A DNA stretch of 52,259 nucleotides from a phage: assembly GCA_025325205.1 (NCBI GenBank), contig GCA_025325205.1_4770.1; one strand, given 5' to 3'. Shown here piece after piece: positions 3,497 to 15,153 of the stretch. A program made the translations under genes and the position numbers. The notes below the pieces were generated by a model, which had not been told where the DNA came from, ran no database searches, and saw only the letters and a list, made by a program, of their open reading frames with translations. The stretch's first letter is position 1. Every line of letters begins with the position of its first letter.

Positions 3497-3997
3497 ATAA
3501 ACCCCTTTAACGTTAACGGAATAACTATAACAGGATACGCAAGTTGATTAACATAGCCGGCCGCAACAATTAATAACCACAGTTAACTGTCTCGTGTGCT
3601 TTAAATCTTGTGCGGCAGAATCAGTTACACATACCAGAAACCGAATCTTGTAAACTCATCTCGAGTATTTACATACGGAATTAACTTTATACGAACAATA
3701 TAGGGCAGGTGAGGTGAGGATATAAAGTGTCTAGTGACGAGATAATCTACAAACGATGAATCCTTGGCAGAGATCTAAGAGCCGCCCGCGGCGTTACTAT
3801 AACGTCCCGTGATCGTCAGTGAGGTGATTGTTACGCCATGTGACTGTTACTTGTTCTATTGTTATGTTGTTTATTGTTACACGCGTTATTATTTTTTATT
3901 TGATTAGTATACTATCTATTACAGGACTATACTATAATGTCCAGTATAATTACGTCTGTTACTATCCACCTGCCCACTATGTGCTGTCTATGTATGT

Positions 3998-4066
3998 GCT
4001 ACCTGGTATTTCCTGCGCGTGCTGTTACCTGGTATTTTCAGCACACTCGCGCTACCTGGTATTTCC
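3998..4066. repeat. three direct repeats of G(C/T)TACCTGGTATTT(C/T)C with 26-27 bp period
   Basis: Copies at 3998-4013, 4024-4039, 4051-4066 read directly from sequence; lies in the divergent intergenic region between minus-strand and plus-strand gene blocks. Confidence 0.8.
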
Positions 4067-4150
4067 GGCACACCGTCTACCGTATAGTCCCGGATGTTAT
4101 TATTATTATGAAACACAACTAAAAAAGTTCTAAAATAATGCAGATAATAG

Positions 4151-4254: not shown

Positions 4255-4560
4255 ATGTCCATTATCTACTTACCGCGTTCTATGTCCCAGTCACAGATCA
4301 CCAAACGTATTATCGGCAAGCGCCTGCACCAACTGGGCCTTACTGCGGAAAAGGTTGACGGGGATTGGGGTTTCGACGAGTATCTGGTAATGCTCCCGGG
4401 CAACGAAAAGTATTCCAGCACCGCGTTATATATTCGCATTAACGAGGACGGCACTGTCAGCTCTTATAGCGTAATGTACGGTCGACCAGTATGCCAAGCG
4501 AATAGCCTTTGGTCTGTGTTCTGCTTTATTACAATGATAGCTAAAGCTATCCAACAATAA
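4255..4560 (+). CDS. hypothetical early protein (paralog family with 6177-6434)
   Basis: 101 aa; N-terminal SQSQITKRIIGKR shared with ORF 6177-6434 (SMITRRIIGKR); good RBS. Confidence 0.45.
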   Translation: MSIIYLPRSMSQSQITKRIIGKRLHQLGLTAEKVDGDWGFDEYLVMLPGNEKYSSTALYIRINEDGTVSSYSVMYGRPVCQANSLWSVFCFITMIAKAIQQ

Positions 4561-4636
4561 TAGCGTGCTAATGGTTGCCCATTGTTACAGTGGGCTCCCA
4601 CTAGCAATCCGCTAGAACAACATGGAGATATTCACA

Positions 4637-5116
4637 ATGGTTACTATCACCCGCGTAGCAAAAGACGCTCGCTTCTTTGCCACTATGTCTAACGCTCGCC
4701 GTGCCTTAAAAAAGGTTCTGGATGTGGACACTGCGACAGCTAACAGCTTTATTCACCAGGAACCGCACGAGGACGGTGGTCGCTACTGGTACAGCGAAAG
4801 CGCGGTTAATAAGGCAGCTAGCGATCTGGTTGAAGCTGATAAAGCGACTGTCGTGGAAGTGACCACACAACCAGCTCCAACCGATCCCGCTAAAAGCAAA
4901 ACACGCAGCGAAACGCGCAACGGGGTCCGCCGCCCAATTAAAGGTAAATGCGCAGACGTTTGGAACGCTCTGGATAATATGTTGCCTAATGGTGTGCCAA
5001 CTATTGGTAACGTCCGTGACCTTGCGAAAGCTAATGGTTGGAATATTAATAATGCAACGATTGAATTCTACGCATGGCGTAAATTCCACGGGCTCAATAA
5101 TAAAGGGGGCAACTAA
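4637..5116 (+). CDS. hypothetical protein
   Basis: ORF 4622-5116; start chosen at ATG 4637 preceded by GGAG (4624-4627); no motif recognised. Confidence 0.4.
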   Translation: MVTITRVAKDARFFATMSNARRALKKVLDVDTATANSFIHQEPHEDGGRYWYSESAVNKAASDLVEADKATVVEVTTQPAPTDPAKSKTRSETRNGVRRPIKGKCADVWNALDNMLPNGVPTIGNVRDLAKANGWNINNATIEFYAWRKFHGLNNKGGN

Positions 5117-10362: not shown

Positions 10363-12912
10363 ATGCTGGAACTTTTTCCTCAAGAAATTAAACAATACGA
10401 ACAGTGGGCTGTCTGCGGTTTCCATCCAGGTACATCATCAGAAAAACAACCTTATGTGTGGGACGATGATTTAGGGGATATGGTCCCACTTCGTAAAGAC
10501 GGCAACGATAAAAAACCGTCTAATTTGCATTTACTAATGTCCTTTGAAGATGCGGAACGTTGTATTCGTTACTATAACGAAATCGGTCATAATCTGCGTT
10601 TAGGTTTCTATCTACTTCCAAGTGATCCGTTCTGTTGTATAGACATGGATATTAAAGACACCATGTCTGAAATGGAAAAGAAAGTTGCTGGTGAGCGATA
10701 TAAGAAGATTGTTGAATCGTTCCACAGTTATACGGAGATTTCCAGAAGTGGTGATGGGTTACACACATGGATTTATTCCATCCCTCAAGCTGGTAAGCGC
10801 CGTGATGGTGTGGAAGTGTATTCCCAGTATCGTTTTATTATCTGTACAGGGGATCACTGGGATATTACTCCGCGCACTGTGTCTGGTGCTCCAGGTAGTG
10901 AAAGCGAAGGGTATATCGCTAATCTCATTCATCAACTTATGTCTGAGATGAGTGAGATTAATGAGTGTGATGGCTTCCAAATGCTGGAACTTACTGAAGA
11001 AGATTTTAGTAACGACCCATATGCAATGGAAGACCAGGATGTCTATATCCAGTTGTGTGAACAAGAAAACGGAACATTGTTTAAGCAGCTATGGGAAGGT
11101 CGTTGGAGAGCTGAAGAAGTTGATACTTCTATCGGTGAACGTTGTTTCCCTTCTCAGTCTGAAGCAGAGTTTGCATTAATTGACTTTCTTTGCTTTAAGA
11201 GTAAGTACAATTTCCAGGTAAGACGTCTGTTCATGTATTCACCAATGAGTAGTCGTTACGATGATTCCCGTCGTCTGCCCGGTGAAAAAATCAAACGTCC
11301 TTATCACCTGGATAGAATGATTCGCAACTATCGCTATGACGCCCATGTTAAATCTATGGGACTTATGCAGATAGTTCAGAATAACGTTAATGCAGCTATA
11401 GAGCGCACGGAAAAACTGCGTCAAGCAACTACACCAGAACGCCCACCTGAAGAAGTGTTGACCACAGATGGTAATTACACTGAGGAGCAAGCGGACGGTT
11501 TAGCCTGGCCTCCGGGCTTTATGGGCGAGGTTGCGCGTAACATGTATAAAGCGAGCTTGTTGCCTATTAAAGACATTAGTATTCTGTCTGCTCTTGCTTT
11601 ATTTAGTGGTATGTGCGGTAAGGCGTGGAACACGGTTACACGAAGTGGTCTGAACAACTACTTTGTATTAATTGCACGTTCTGGTATTGGTAAAGAAGCA
11701 TTTCGCTCTAACATTGAAACAATTCTTTCTCAGGTTTCCAATTATGGCGGTCAGGACGGGCAACAGATATTCGGTATTGAACGTGTTTTAGATACCAGTA
11801 CCTATGCGTCTGATGCTGCATTGCGCAAAGACGTCATAATGGATACGTCTGTTATGTCTTGTGGCTCATCCATTAACTATAAGACTGAAGTCGGTGCGTT
11901 TTTCCGTAACGGTAAGATGGAAGTTGGTAAAGCTAAAGACATTATGGATGAAATGCTTTCCCTTTATGATAAAGGACATTTCTATGCTTTCTCTGGTGGT
12001 TCAAAGCACTCTAGCAAAGATAATACGACCGCTGGTGGTAAAGTCAAGGCGTATAGTTTTGCAGGTGAAACAACACCAGATGAATTTTATGGGAACGTTG
12101 ATGACCGCATGATGTCAAGTGGTTTCATGTCTCGTATTATTGCATGGGAATGTACAGCTAACCGCCCACTCATGAATAAGAGTATGCTCCTGGAATATCC
12201 GGAAGCAATTCTGCGGACTATTGGAGCTATCTATAAACAAGCTGTGCGTATTATGTCAGGGACTGCTCCATGTTATGTTGAAATGGAAGCAGAGGTACAC
12301 GAAGCGTTTGATAACCTTGATAATGTTGTCGCGAAGTTCCTGAATAGCGGTAATGACGGTGAACAGGTACAGGATGAAGTAATCCGTCAGATGTACACAA
12401 GGAAGGCGTTGAAGGTATTGCGTATCGCCTCCCTTCTTGCTGTAGCAGATAACAGTGAGCGTCCTGTTGTTACTATGGAACATTATCGTTGGGCTGAGTC
12501 ATTTATTGATCAGGGTAACGAGCGTTTCTTAGAGAAGCGTAATAGTGGGCTGATTGGGTCTACAGATAGTACCAGTCGTGAGAAAATAATGCTCAACTCT
12601 ATCAAGAAGTTCTTGGATGGGGAAGTTAAAGCTGGTGTGTATAAACGGTTCCCAATGTTTAAGGACGCGTTTATTGTCACACGAAGTGATCTATGCACAG
12701 TATGTCGCCAGTTCAAGGCTTTTAAACAAACAAGAAATGACAACATCTTGCAGGTCATAGACAACACAATTTATGGTTTGATGTCCATGGAAGTTCTTAC
12801 TGAGATGAGGCCAATGGACTTTTCAAGTTTCTTCGGTGCAGAGTTTACACCACCGAGGATGAAATGTTATTTGGTGGACATTGAGAGAATGAACGAAGTT
12901 ATTAAGTTATAA
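10363..12912 (+). CDS. DNA primase-polymerase (archaeo-eukaryotic primase superfamily) with large C-terminal domain
   Basis: AEP motifs in order: CCIDMDIKD (hhhDxD), SRSGDGLHTWIY (sGxGxH), FIICTGDHWD; C-terminal region has only a degenerate P-loop-like SGIGKE, so helicase activity is not supported. Confidence 0.6.
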   Translation: MLELFPQEIKQYEQWAVCGFHPGTSSEKQPYVWDDDLGDMVPLRKDGNDKKPSNLHLLMSFEDAERCIRYYNEIGHNLRLGFYLLPSDPFCCIDMDIKDTMSEMEKKVAGERYKKIVESFHSYTEISRSGDGLHTWIYSIPQAGKRRDGVEVYSQYRFIICTGDHWDITPRTVSGAPGSESEGYIANLIHQLMSEMSEINECDGFQMLELTEEDFSNDPYAMEDQDVYIQLCEQENGTLFKQLWEGRWRAEEVDTSIGERCFPSQSEAEFALIDFLCFKSKYNFQVRRLFMYSPMSSRYDDSRRLPGEKIKRPYHLDRMIRNYRYDAHVKSMGLMQIVQNNVNAAIERTEKLRQATTPERPPEEVLTTDGNYTEEQADGLAWPPGFMGEVARNMYKASLLPIKDISILSALALFSGMCGKAWNTVTRSGLNNYFVLIARSGIGKEAFRSNIETILSQVSNYGGQDGQQIFGIERVLDTSTYASDAALRKDVIMDTSVMSCGSSINYKTEVGAFFRNGKMEVGKAKDIMDEMLSLYDKGHFYAFSGGSKHSSKDNTTAGGKVKAYSFAGETTPDEFYGNVDDRMMSSGFMSRIIAWECTANRPLMNKSMLLEYPEAILRTIGAIYKQAVRIMSGTAPCYVEMEAEVHEAFDNLDNVVAKFLNSGNDGEQVQDEVIRQMYTRKALKVLRIASLLAVADNSERPVVTMEHYRWAESFIDQGNERFLEKRNSGLIGSTDSTSREKIMLNSIKKFLDGEVKAGVYKRFPMFKDAFIVTRSDLCTVCRQFKAFKQTRNDNILQVIDNTIYGLMSMEVLTEMRPMDFSSFFGAEFTPPRMKCYLVDIERMNEVIKL

Positions 12913-12950
12913 AAAAAAAATGGGCGCTATATGCGCCCATTATATTATTC
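12911..12950. terminator. bidirectional rho-independent terminator
   Basis: A-run, hairpin TGGGCGC-tatat-GCGCCCA (12921-12939), T-rich flank; sits between convergent genes 10363-12912 (+) and 12945-13175 (-). Confidence 0.55.
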
Positions 12951-13175
12951 ATGCAATTCTAAGAAACCACATACGACATATTCAAACATTTCATCATAAT
13001 CCGGTGTTGAAAAGTCTCCAACGTGATACTCACCTTTCTCAAACGTAACAACAGTTGAAGAGTTCATGTATGTGTACTTAATCTTGTGAGTTCCGTCTAT
13101 GCAGTTGTGTGAGAATTCCTCTGACTTGTTCATTGCATTTCTGATGTTTCTTTTTACAAGATCTTGGTGAGTCAT
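12945..13175 (-). CDS. hypothetical protein (AT-rich, opposite strand to surrounding block)
   Basis: 76-aa ORF with GCGGAGGA RBS on minus strand and its own candidate promoter. Confidence 0.4.
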   Translation of the reverse strand: MTHQDLVKRNIRNAMNKSEEFSHNCIDGTHKIKYTYMNSSTVVTFEKGEYHVGDFSTPDYDEMFEYVVCGFLELHE

Positions 13176-13210
13176 TTTGTGTTCCTCCGCTTATAAACTG
13201 TATAATACAT

Positions 13211-13238
13211 ACTATAGAGCATTTCCTTAGGAATGCAA
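13211..13238 (-). promoter_or_regulatory. candidate sigma70 promoter on minus strand (TTGCAT-N16-TATAGT)
   Basis: Reverse complement of 13233-13238 is TTGCAT, of 13211-13216 is TATAGT; 16-nt spacer; about 35 nt upstream of ATG of ORF 12945-13175. Confidence 0.45.
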
Positions 13239-13273
13239 TAGGTATCAAGAATTATTTTACGTCCGAGGGTCAA

Positions 13274-13552
13274 ATGTCCAGTTACAATCTAGCAGCTATT
13301 AAAATTGTGTACGGTGCTCTATACCAGGATGAGGAGTTCCCAGGCATTGAGCAGGCAATTAAAAGAATCAAGTCTAATCGTGTTGACTCGGAACAACTGT
13401 TCGCCTATGCTTTAGCCATAAGTAAGAACGAAGTCCGTCCTTACTATGAAACACTGTCACGCCAGTTACGAAGTGTAATAGAAGAACGTGACTTAATGCG
13501 GCACTGTGGATACACATTCTTAACAGGTAGAGCCATACGTGTCAGCAAATAA
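13274..13552 (+). CDS. hypothetical protein
   Basis: 92-aa ORF. Confidence 0.35.
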   Translation: MSSYNLAAIKIVYGALYQDEEFPGIEQAIKRIKSNRVDSEQLFAYALAISKNEVRPYYETLSRQLRSVIEERDLMRHCGYTFLTGRAIRVSK

Positions 13553-13569: not shown

Positions 13570-13767
13570 ATGCAAAAGCATCAACCTCTATATAAAGTCC
13601 GTCGTCTTGGTGGTGGTCTCTACGCAGTAGAGCGCAATAAACGTTCTATTACAATCGTGAGTGTTAAAGTGGGATCACGTAAATTCTACAGCGTTCCTAA
13701 CTGCTCGCCTTTGTTACCAACACTGCGCGACGCTGTCCTGTATGTACTTACTGGTGCATTCTTCTAA
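13570..13767 (+). CDS. hypothetical protein
   Basis: 65-aa ORF with AAGGAG RBS. Confidence 0.35.
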   Translation: MQKHQPLYKVRRLGGGLYAVERNKRSITIVSVKVGSRKFYSVPNCSPLLPTLRDAVLYVLTGAFF

Positions 13768-13783
13768 TTTTAAGAGTATTCAA

Positions 13784-14005
13784 ATGACAGCTAAAGAATT
13801 AGTAGTTTGTGAACAAAAGACGAGGGAGTTCTTCGTATCTTATAGTTATCACAAAGGACAGATGGTATTTCCAGGATTTGGACATGTATTTGTAAAGGCT
13901 CCGTGTATTAGCAGGGAGACAATTGAAGGTACTGTTGAACTTCTTAAAGAATCGAATTCCTTCGATGTTGTTATTATTCTTAATATCATTGAGCTGGAGA
14001 AATAA
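13784..14005 (+). CDS. hypothetical protein
   Basis: ORF 13661-14005 trimmed to ATG 13784 to avoid overlap; start uncertain. Confidence 0.3.
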   Translation: MTAKELVVCEQKTREFFVSYSYHKGQMVFPGFGHVFVKAPCISRETIEGTVELLKESNSFDVVIILNIIELEK

Positions 14006-14006
14006 T

Positions 14007-14228
14007 ATGTGTAATAAATGTGAAGAAATGACCATGATAGACGAGAGAATGTTAGTGTCTCTGGCAATCATTGAAGCAGCCCAGAATTCCTTCATTGAAG
14101 CCTATCGTTTATGTAAACCAGAATCCTCGTTAGATGAAATTGAGAAAGCCTGGCAGAAATCAAATACATGTAGCGTATTGGGGCATCTTATGATGGGCGA
14201 AGAACAACCTAAAGAGAATCTACACTAA
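14007..14228 (+). CDS. hypothetical protein
   Basis: ORF 13923-14228 trimmed to ATG 14007 after GGAGA RBS. Confidence 0.3.
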   Translation: MCNKCEEMTMIDERMLVSLAIIEAAQNSFIEAYRLCKPESSLDEIEKAWQKSNTCSVLGHLMMGEEQPKENLH

Positions 14229-14536
14229 TGCCCAGCAGAATGTACAAAGTGCTAGGATGGAAGCCTTATACTTTTCGCTCAAACTACGACAAGGAAATGA
14301 AGTGTAAACGATGCCCAAAGTGTGGTCACACTCAGTTTACAGAGACTGTTGTAGCTCAAGTTGATGGTTACTATTCGCCTGTGTGCGAGTCAAAGATTAA
14401 TTGTAATCATTGTGAGCAAGAGGTAAACTATTGGGCATATGGTTACTACGAACCACATCATATGGTTGCAGATCGTAGTATGTCCATGCTGATCAATCGT
14501 ATTGAAGCTAAATTAAGGAGAATTAGTTTACCATGA
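14228..14536 (+). CDS. putative zinc-ribbon protein
   Basis: CKRCPKC ... CNHC cysteine pairs (CxxC x2 pattern). Confidence 0.35.
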   Translation: MPSRMYKVLGWKPYTFRSNYDKEMKCKRCPKCGHTQFTETVVAQVDGYYSPVCESKINCNHCEQEVNYWAYGYYEPHHMVADRSMSMLINRIEAKLRRISLP

Positions 14537-15125: not shown

Positions 15126-15153
15126 GGGGGTACTTGTGTACCCCCTATTTTTT
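15126..15153 (+). terminator. rho-independent terminator
   Basis: GGGGGTAC-ttgt-GTACCCCC hairpin followed by TATTTTTT. Confidence 0.65.

Follow-up and report, generated by a model that had tools for sequence, protein, structure and literature searches.

Results

A Small Reversed Gene Lies Behind the Primase/Helicase Gene of a Nonagvirus Phage

We analyzed a 52,259-nucleotide stretch of phage DNA (contig GCA_025325205.1_4770.1, hereafter referred to as the window), concentrating on a small open reading frame (ORF) on its minus strand at 12945-13175. The window comes from a Nonagvirus, that is, a 9g-like siphovirus of E. coli and Salmonella in the subfamily Queuovirinae. The 2.5 kb around the ORF are matched at 90-96% identity by 18 phage records, all of them Nonagvirus, with PD328 and SE1 being the nearest. 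Upstream of the ORF lies an 849-aa primase/helicase gene (phrog_3022, DUF3987, archaeo-eukaryotic primase domain), and downstream are small early or replication-associated genes. An earlier note on this DNA, made from the sequence alone, had described the ORF as running opposite to all its neighbors. This holds: the SE1 orthologue, gp55, is the sole minus-strand gene among 51 consecutive genes (gp37-gp87). The locus contains the following features, some of them predicted, given with the evidence used to delimit them.

12911-12949, not strand-specific: bidirectional intrinsic terminator, predicted, common to the convergent primase gene and the small ORF (scan on both strands, fold energy)
12945-13175 (stop codon included), minus strand: protein-coding gene, 76 aa, ATG start (phrog_17131; ratio of nonsynonymous to synonymous substitution rates, dN/dS; AlphaFold2)
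13061-13120, minus strand: variable cassette in the ORF, approximately codons 19-38, covering the first hairpin and loop of the protein model, where model confidence is lowest (diversity; synonymous rate, dS; predicted local distance difference test score, pLDDT)
13121-13300, not strand-specific: hyperconserved block comprising ORF codons 1-18, the 98-nt intergenic region 13176-13273 and the start of a 92-aa gene (diversity in Nonagvirus)
13177-13206, plus strand: candidate rightward promoter, -35 TTGTGT at 13177-13182, N18, -10 TATAAT at 13201-13206, with TG before the -10 (cross-clade footprint)
13183-13188, minus strand (read 13188->13183): Shine-Dalgarno sequence GGAGGA, 7 nt 5' of the ATG (core conserved in three clades)
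13211-13238, minus strand: predicted sigma-70-type promoter of the small gene, -35 TTGCAT at 13238-13233, N16, -10 TATAGT at 13216-13211 (cross-clade footprint)
13219-13236, not strand-specific: inverted repeat GCATTTCC-TTA-GGAATGC, within the spacer and -35 of the leftward promoter (found once in the window)

The Reversed Gene Is Flanked by Conserved Transcription Signals

The earlier note had proposed TTGCAT-N16-TATAGT as a minus-strand promoter of the gene. The element is present at 13238->13211, and it is supported by its footprint in three clades, not by its single occurrence in the window. When the intergenic spacer is aligned over Nonagvirus and the two sister clades described below, the element reads TTGCA(T/A)-N16-TATAnT, with 10 of its 12 hexamer positions invariant against a background of 30 of 98 (hypergeometric P = 8.9e-5); the spacer between the hexamers, always 16 nt long, has one invariant position out of 16. 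TTGCAT-N16-TATAGT itself was found once in the 52-kb window, where 0.12 occurrences are expected, and at least one match was found in 12 of 100 shuffles. A generic promoter scan did not list the element because just 8 of 12 consensus positions match, A2 and T6 of the -10 being among the bases present. The spacing of the hexamers, within the 16-18 nt of sigma-70 promoters, and the key -10 positions are consistent with a promoter of this type, from which transcription would start near 13204. Another leftward candidate, TGGACA-N18-AATAAT (13280->13251), which matched 10 of 12 positions in the scan, was rejected: its -35 overlaps the start codon of the 92-aa gene and is not kept in the other clades. 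The ribosome-binding site GGAGGA reported in the earlier note was likewise confirmed, and its G.GGA core as well as ACAAAATG are invariant across the three clades.

At the distal end of the gene, an A10 run (12911-12920) leads into a hairpin (12919-12941) with the stem AATGGGCGC / GCGCCCATT and a 5-nt loop, followed by ATATTATT. The stem has 9 bp, of which six are G-C pairs, and the hairpin has a free energy of -16.8 kcal/mol (z = -4.4 and -4.65 on the two strands). Both strands were flagged by the terminator scan, in agreement with the earlier description of a bidirectional hairpin between A- and T-runs. With its GC-rich stem, short loop and T-run on both strands, the element has the makings of a Rho-independent bidirectional terminator. 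The minus-strand transcript would carry a T10 tail and the plus-strand transcript ATATTATT (5 T in 8), and the terminator probably acts strongly on leftward transcription of the ORF and less strongly on rightward transcription of the primase gene. Of 14 Nonagvirus sequences, 13 have an identical hairpin, and the adjacent A-run is 5 to 10 long. Between clades the stem differs (GGGCGC/GCGCCC, GGGCC/GGCCC and GGGCCC/GGGCCC, in each case between convergent stop codons), and GGGTC/GACCC is a further stem among the hairpins found at the same place outside Nonagvirus. Because these stems differ and are nevertheless paired, the changes are compensatory, and the terminator has been maintained. The earlier proposal that the gene is transcribed independently is thus well supported at the sequence level by the promoter footprint and by conservation of the terminator over three clades, and a fixed, self-contained reversed transcription unit is very probably what the locus holds.

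The region also contains a candidate promoter that faces rightward. Its -10 region reads TGTATAAT in the window (13199-13206), and across clades the element has the form TTGTnn-N18-TATAnT, with 9 of 12 positions invariant and a spacer that is always 18 nt (P = 9.7e-4); transcription from it would start near 13213. A rightward promoter is needed at this spot because the terminator ends the primase transcript. The -35 is the less secure part of this prediction, since it coincides with the conserved translation-start region of the ORF. The two TATAnT elements lie on opposite strands approximately 3-4 nt apart (4 bp between the -10s in the window), and each predicted start site falls within the -10 region of the other promoter. 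RNA polymerase could accordingly occupy just one of the two promoters at a time, and given such overlapping footprints the two should compete.

The Control Region Is the Least Diverse Segment of the Neighborhood

The 98-nt intergenic region has three variable columns in 14 Nonagvirus sequences. Its diversity of 0.008 compares with 0.036 in two other intergenic regions of the block and 0.03-0.11 in the neighboring genes, making the control region the least diverse segment of the neighborhood. The frozen block reaches 18-20 codons into the ORF, with a dS of 0.08 for codons 1-20 and of about 1 elsewhere. The length of the intergenic region is 98-99 nt in every clade. The inverted repeat located between the -35 and -10 of the leftward promoter has one match in the window against 0.05 expected. 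It is invariant in the 14 Nonagvirus sequences and not conserved in the other clades, and it could be a genus-specific operator.

Two further readings of the conserved block found no support. An RNA element is not indicated: all Rfam matches are sub-threshold and anchored on the terminator, the leaders of both predicted transcripts are unstructured (leftward leader fold z = 0.14), and the inverted repeat is not a stable RNA element. For a replication origin in this AT-rich block, no iterons were found, and the skew trend is unchanged beyond the effect of the reversed gene itself.

The Small ORF Evolves as a Protein-Coding Gene

The 76-aa product matches the profile of phrog_17131, a phage family of unknown function, along its whole length (E = 1.3e-53; residues 1-76 aligned to profile positions 1-76), and members from the second clade and more divergent ones match this profile weakly. 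The GC content of the ORF is 0.359, and that of the window has a mean of 0.432 (standard deviation [SD] 0.047). The earlier note was thus correct that the gene is AT-richer than its surroundings and overstated the case in calling it markedly so: the difference is -1.5 SD, approximately 6% of 231-nt segments of the window have a GC content as low, and a neighboring plus-strand gene stands at 0.367.

Over 15 distinct Nonagvirus alleles, the ORF has a dN/dS of 0.15, which falls to 0.03 in the C-terminal helix, and the sole length difference is an in-frame indel of two codons. These patterns indicate that the reversed ORF is a real gene under purifying selection. It is also the most diverse gene in its neighborhood (0.107), because of the cassette at codons 19-38, which exists in two old allelic forms, SHNC(I/T)DGTHKI(K/R)Y and LFE--QGSSIIKY. 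Nucleotide diversity is 0.234 in the cassette and 0.03-0.08 in the remaining ORF. Positive selection in the cassette was considered and rejected: with a dS of 1.1 and a dN/dS of 0.16, its forms are old diverged alleles.

These data bear on the proposal that the transcription unit matters and the ORF is incidental, the reversed promoter and terminator serving to split the 30-kb block into two operons and to damp read-through. The control region and the terminator are far more conserved than the ORF, frameshifts in the ORF are tolerated, and between genera the cargo can be replaced with the Shine-Dalgarno region and terminator retained, all of which would suit such a role. The selection just described argues otherwise, as do the conserved Shine-Dalgarno sequence and start codon, the in-frame nature of the indels, and the preservation of protein motifs and predicted fold across clades at approximately 30-35% identity. 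We therefore regard an incidental ORF as highly improbable.

The Gene Is Fixed at This Site in Close Relatives

The ORF was found at the same site in 18 of 18 Nonagvirus records, which represent 13 distinct phages. Two further clades carry it: clade 2 includes the Klebsiella phages K9PH25C2 and Kpn2-P2, Ec1-ASingh and several metagenomic contigs of ~60 kb, and clade 3 consists of a set of ~64-kb contigs. In all three clades the gene order is constant, with the primase gene followed by the reversed ORF, a 98-99-nt spacer and a gene of 92-110 aa. The clade 2 and 3 proteins are about 35% identical to the window protein and share with it an N-terminal NI(K/R)xxMNxxE motif and a C-terminal DYDxMF motif. 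In searches of 5.8 billion proteins, the window protein yielded 6 clusters, the Klebsiella-phage version 33 and the third version 5. The 18 hits of a profile search in 1.84 billion representative proteins were a few more small relatives and repeat-protein noise. Scans for the loci of the most divergent relatives brought up clade 1 and clade 2 loci only. No copy of the gene was found among 185,579 bacterial and archaeal species, each represented by one genome. The protein family is thus, as far as these searches reach, small and confined to phages. A 64-aa fragment that is 100% identical to the window protein is present at NCBI on a 533-nt contig labelled Luteibacter rhizovicinus, most likely as a result of phage contamination of that assembly.

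Two independent natural frameshift alleles of the ORF were detected. One, in the BASEL phage FritzHoffmann (Bas20), changes GGG to GGGG (+1) at codon 38, and the other, T5 to T4, occurs in a lineage of six contigs. Given these alleles, the gene looks accessory. The ORF is intact in Bas19, and Bas20 has not been reported to be more restriction-sensitive than Bas19 (PMC8594841). In the GenBank records of the BASEL phages FritzHoffmann and ChristophMerian, the locus is annotated as two short coding sequences (CDSs; 2441-2745 and 2455-2744 of the retrieved stretches, respectively). Both annotated CDSs of ChristophMerian are in the wrong frame, and its 76-aa ORF is intact.

The earlier note had interpreted the locus as an independently transcribed moron. 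The part of this interpretation that concerns architecture stands, since a predicted promoter and terminator of its own surround a single gene. The variation in presence and absence that the note proposed to look for in close relatives was not seen: the ORF is present in 13 of 13 distinct Nonagvirus genomes and in two sister clades, and the gene therefore falls outside the strict definition of a moron. Further out in the subfamily, the slot is empty or filled with unrelated small acidic proteins. Morons, in the sense of Juhala and Hendrix, are known from lambdoid and other temperate phages. The locus shares with them a single small accessory-looking gene that has its own promoter and intrinsic terminator and sits between conserved genes. 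Unlike morons, it occupies the same site in every close relative and in both sister clades, the phage is virulent and no prophage copies were found, and the base composition of the ORF is only mildly atypical. A better term for the locus than moron is thus "conserved reversed accessory gene in a fixed slot".

Deeper Relatives Carry Unrelated Proteins in the Same Slot

In the Seuratvirus phages CAjan, GottfriedDienst and STP-SP5, a reversed gene of 65-74 aa (phrog_22269) follows the homologous primase gene. This slot resembles that of the window in orientation, in a homologous ribosome-binding region (GGAGGATTACAAAATG), in its terminator hairpin, and in encoding a small acidic product. The differences are an unrelated protein (hhalign probability 0.2%) with a weak AP2-like pattern and a longer intergenic region, of 241 nt, from which the TTGCAw-N16-TATAnT promoter is absent. 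The Seuratvirus protein (CAjan 4870-5094; 3867-4091 and 3872-4069 in the others) has a sub-threshold match to AP2 in Pfam (E = 0.0033), in PHROG weakly resembles the AP2-like part of HNH endonucleases, and may be a stand-alone DNA-binding protein. Providencia phage PSTCR4 carries another unrelated small acidic protein, of 59 aa, in the reversed slot. No reversed gene follows the homologous primase gene in Pseudomonas phage NP1 or Klebsiella phage K4PH164.

The recurrence of a reversed gene at this place is relevant to the question of whether the protein serves the adjacent primase/helicase in an accessory role, be it as a loader, an inhibitor, a timing device or a shield against sensing of the enzyme, which would explain why the gene is always kept beside the primase gene. 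Strict adjacency and a shared terminator in three clades fit this idea, as do the analogous reversed small acidic genes behind the homologous primase in Seuratvirus and PSTCR4 and a neighborhood with many replication functions, among them an N4 gp8-like inhibitor of host replication. However, the primases of NP1 and K4PH164 do without a reversed gene, the slot proteins are unrelated to each other, and frameshift alleles exist. The alleles of the two genes are moreover uncoupled: compared with JenP2, the window primase is 99.6% identical, whereas the ORF is 76% identical and carries the other form of the cassette. We consider a role as primase accessory factor unlikely.

A more far-reaching proposal, which we regard as speculative and somewhat doubtful, is that the slot behind the primase gene would be a cassette with frozen signals (overlapping divergent promoters, ribosome-binding region and shared terminator) that carries unrelated small acidic cargo in different Queuovirinae-like genera. 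The 76-aa protein would then found a new family of host-factor or defence inhibitors, its specificity being set by the hairpin at codons 19-38.

The Product Is a Small Acidic Protein with a Predicted Alpha/Beta Fold

The window protein has an isoelectric point (pI) of 5.2 and a net charge of -6, and the protein is acidic in every clade (pI 4.1-5.2, net charge -5 to -12). AlphaFold2, given a 35-sequence alignment, predicted a helix (residues 3-17), a five-stranded antiparallel sheet and a second helix (residues 60-75), with a mean pLDDT of 79.3, a predicted template-modelling (TM) score of 0.64 and a pLDDT of 64 at residues 21-30, within the cassette. The database model of a clade 2 member reproduces the predicted fold (TM 0.89). 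Basic residues of the sheet differ from clade to clade.

The window protein had no match in Pfam, NCBIfam, PADLOC or PDB sequences, and comparison of its fold gave no informative relative either. No helix-turn-helix, ribbon-helix-helix, AP2 or other DNA-binding family was matched in Pfam or NCBIfam, and hhalign against the AP2-like Seuratvirus protein gave 0.2%. No described defence or anti-defence family matched it in sequence or fold. The record of phage 9g carries the note "similar with transcription elongation factors", which derives from the SH2/Spt6-like domain, and no significant structural or sequence match to this domain was detected. The anti-defence or exclusion role suggested in the earlier note is pure conjecture. 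Given that the protein is acidic in all clades and has no DNA-binding signature, protein binding is favored over DNA binding; that the protein acts in this way, in host takeover or counter-defence, seems to us possible, at somewhat less than an even chance.

The opposing view is that the protein is a regulator that acts on its own overlapping divergent promoters, for instance through the repeat at 13219-13236, and so balances leftward expression against the rightward restart. The architecture invites this view: the gene is divergent from an operon, the promoters interdigitate with an inverted repeat between -35 and -10, and the control region shows exceptional conservation. So, too, does the Seuratvirus slot protein speak for it, which is unrelated and has the sub-threshold AP2 match (E = 0.0033). 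Divergent arrangements of this kind are familiar from Tn10 tetA/tetR and lambda PR/PRM, in which, as here, two sigma-70 promoters on opposite strands have overlapping footprints and a small gene diverges from an operon. Unlike those systems, no repressor or conserved operator was identified here, the product is unlike a DNA binder, and the start sites are predicted. Furthermore, all family members are acidic and match no DNA-binding family or fold, the basic residues of the sheet vary between clades, the inverted repeat is absent from the two other clades that keep the protein and occurs nowhere else in the window, and frameshifted phages are viable. An autoregulatory function is thus improbable; were it real, the locus would act as a small switch, with a conceivable tie to the metastable carrier state that has been reported for phage 9g.

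Neighboring Genes and Variation Around the Locus

The gene divergent from the reversed ORF (13274-13552, plus strand) encodes a small basic protein of 92 aa (pI 9.1) and is kept as its divergent partner in all three clades. Relatives label it "protease" or "putative cysteine protease, calpain domain". We found no Pfam support for this label, which looks like a propagated annotation artefact. Farther downstream, a 65-aa protein (13570-13767, plus strand) matches PF25713, the host DNA replication inhibitor gp8 of phage N4, above the curated cut-off (E = 1.5e-18). The presence of this homologue approximately 400 bp downstream of the reversed ORF suggests a host-takeover function there.

The stretch at ~13780-14230 is an indel hot-spot in which relatives have zero to three extra small genes: SE1 and FritzHoffmann carry genes of 187 aa and 69 aa, and several genes are missing in 9g. 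This hot-spot is the reason that megablast matches of relatives are split. Just 5' of a RusA-like resolvase gene, at 15126-15145 (plus strand), there is another strong terminator-like hairpin, GGGGGTAC...GTACCCCC and then TATTTTTT, which is annotated as a terminator in three relatives as well; the rightward block therefore appears to be punctuated more than once. In phage SP8, an HNH homing endonuclease gene is inserted 5' of the RusA-like gene (4524-5000 of the retrieved stretch), which is absent from the window and the other relatives. Finally, the primase/helicase is annotated as three or four CDSs in the SE1 and HdK1 records (1-2413 of the retrieved stretches) and is one intact 849-aa protein in the window; frameshifts or sequencing errors may account for the split CDSs.

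Discussion

The explanation that we favor, and to which we would give an even chance as a whole, combines the reversed transcription unit with a small acidic partner-binding protein. The unit would point backwards within the early/replication block of the Nonagvirus genome, which runs rightward for ~30 kb. Host RNA polymerase would initiate at TTGCAT-N16-TATAGT, presumably early in infection, and produce a transcript consisting of an unstructured leader of ~30 nt, a strong ribosome-binding site and the 76-codon gene. Leftward transcription would halt at the strong terminator that also ends the convergent primase/helicase gene, and because this shared terminator stops the leftward transcript, no antisense RNA would reach the primase gene. 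The interdigitated rightward promoter, TTGTGT-N18-TGTATAAT, would restart transcription of the downstream operon, and the two promoters would compete for polymerase. The small acidic alpha/beta product, kept by purifying selection yet dispensable in some lineages, would bind and neutralize a protein partner.

Several points weigh against this explanation. Taken by itself, the single occurrence of the leftward promoter in the window is not significant, and conservation of the rightward -35 could be explained by its overlap with the translation initiation region of the ORF. Within the genus, promoter function alone does not account for a spacer and an ORF 5' end that are frozen to this degree. 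Both frameshifts lie in homopolymer runs and could be sequencing errors, although the second recurs in six contigs. Our literature search yielded neither a Nonagvirus transcriptome nor data on transcripts, start sites or proteins of any member of the genus, and it found this gene mentioned nowhere.

Phages are known to make small acidic proteins early in infection that inhibit proteins of the host (T7 Ocr, T7 Gp2 and N4 gp8 are examples), and these offer a parallel for the proposed function. The product described here has in common with them a size in the range of 60-120 aa, an acidic character, a location among early or replication genes, and, as predicted, expression by host RNA polymerase. 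It differs in having no sequence or significant structural similarity to any of them, and its role as an inhibitor is putative.

The gene is one of many small phage genes of unknown function, and it is unusually well delimited, with a predicted promoter, a ribosome-binding site and a terminator placed to the base and backed by comparative footprints. It sits behind the most conserved non-coding stretch of its region. A natural knock-out (Bas20) and an intact version (Bas19) exist in the widely used BASEL collection, making the gene an inexpensive candidate for asking whether virulent phages use reversed single-gene units to counter defences or take over the host, and the locus is also suited to the study of competition between two interdigitated promoters. 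Our findings thus suggest that the ORF, though of an ordinary kind, is a clearly defined candidate for a factor that interferes with the host or counters its defences. Should cargo indeed be exchanged between genera at this slot, new inhibitors could usefully be sought there in phages with 7-deazaguanine-modified DNA.

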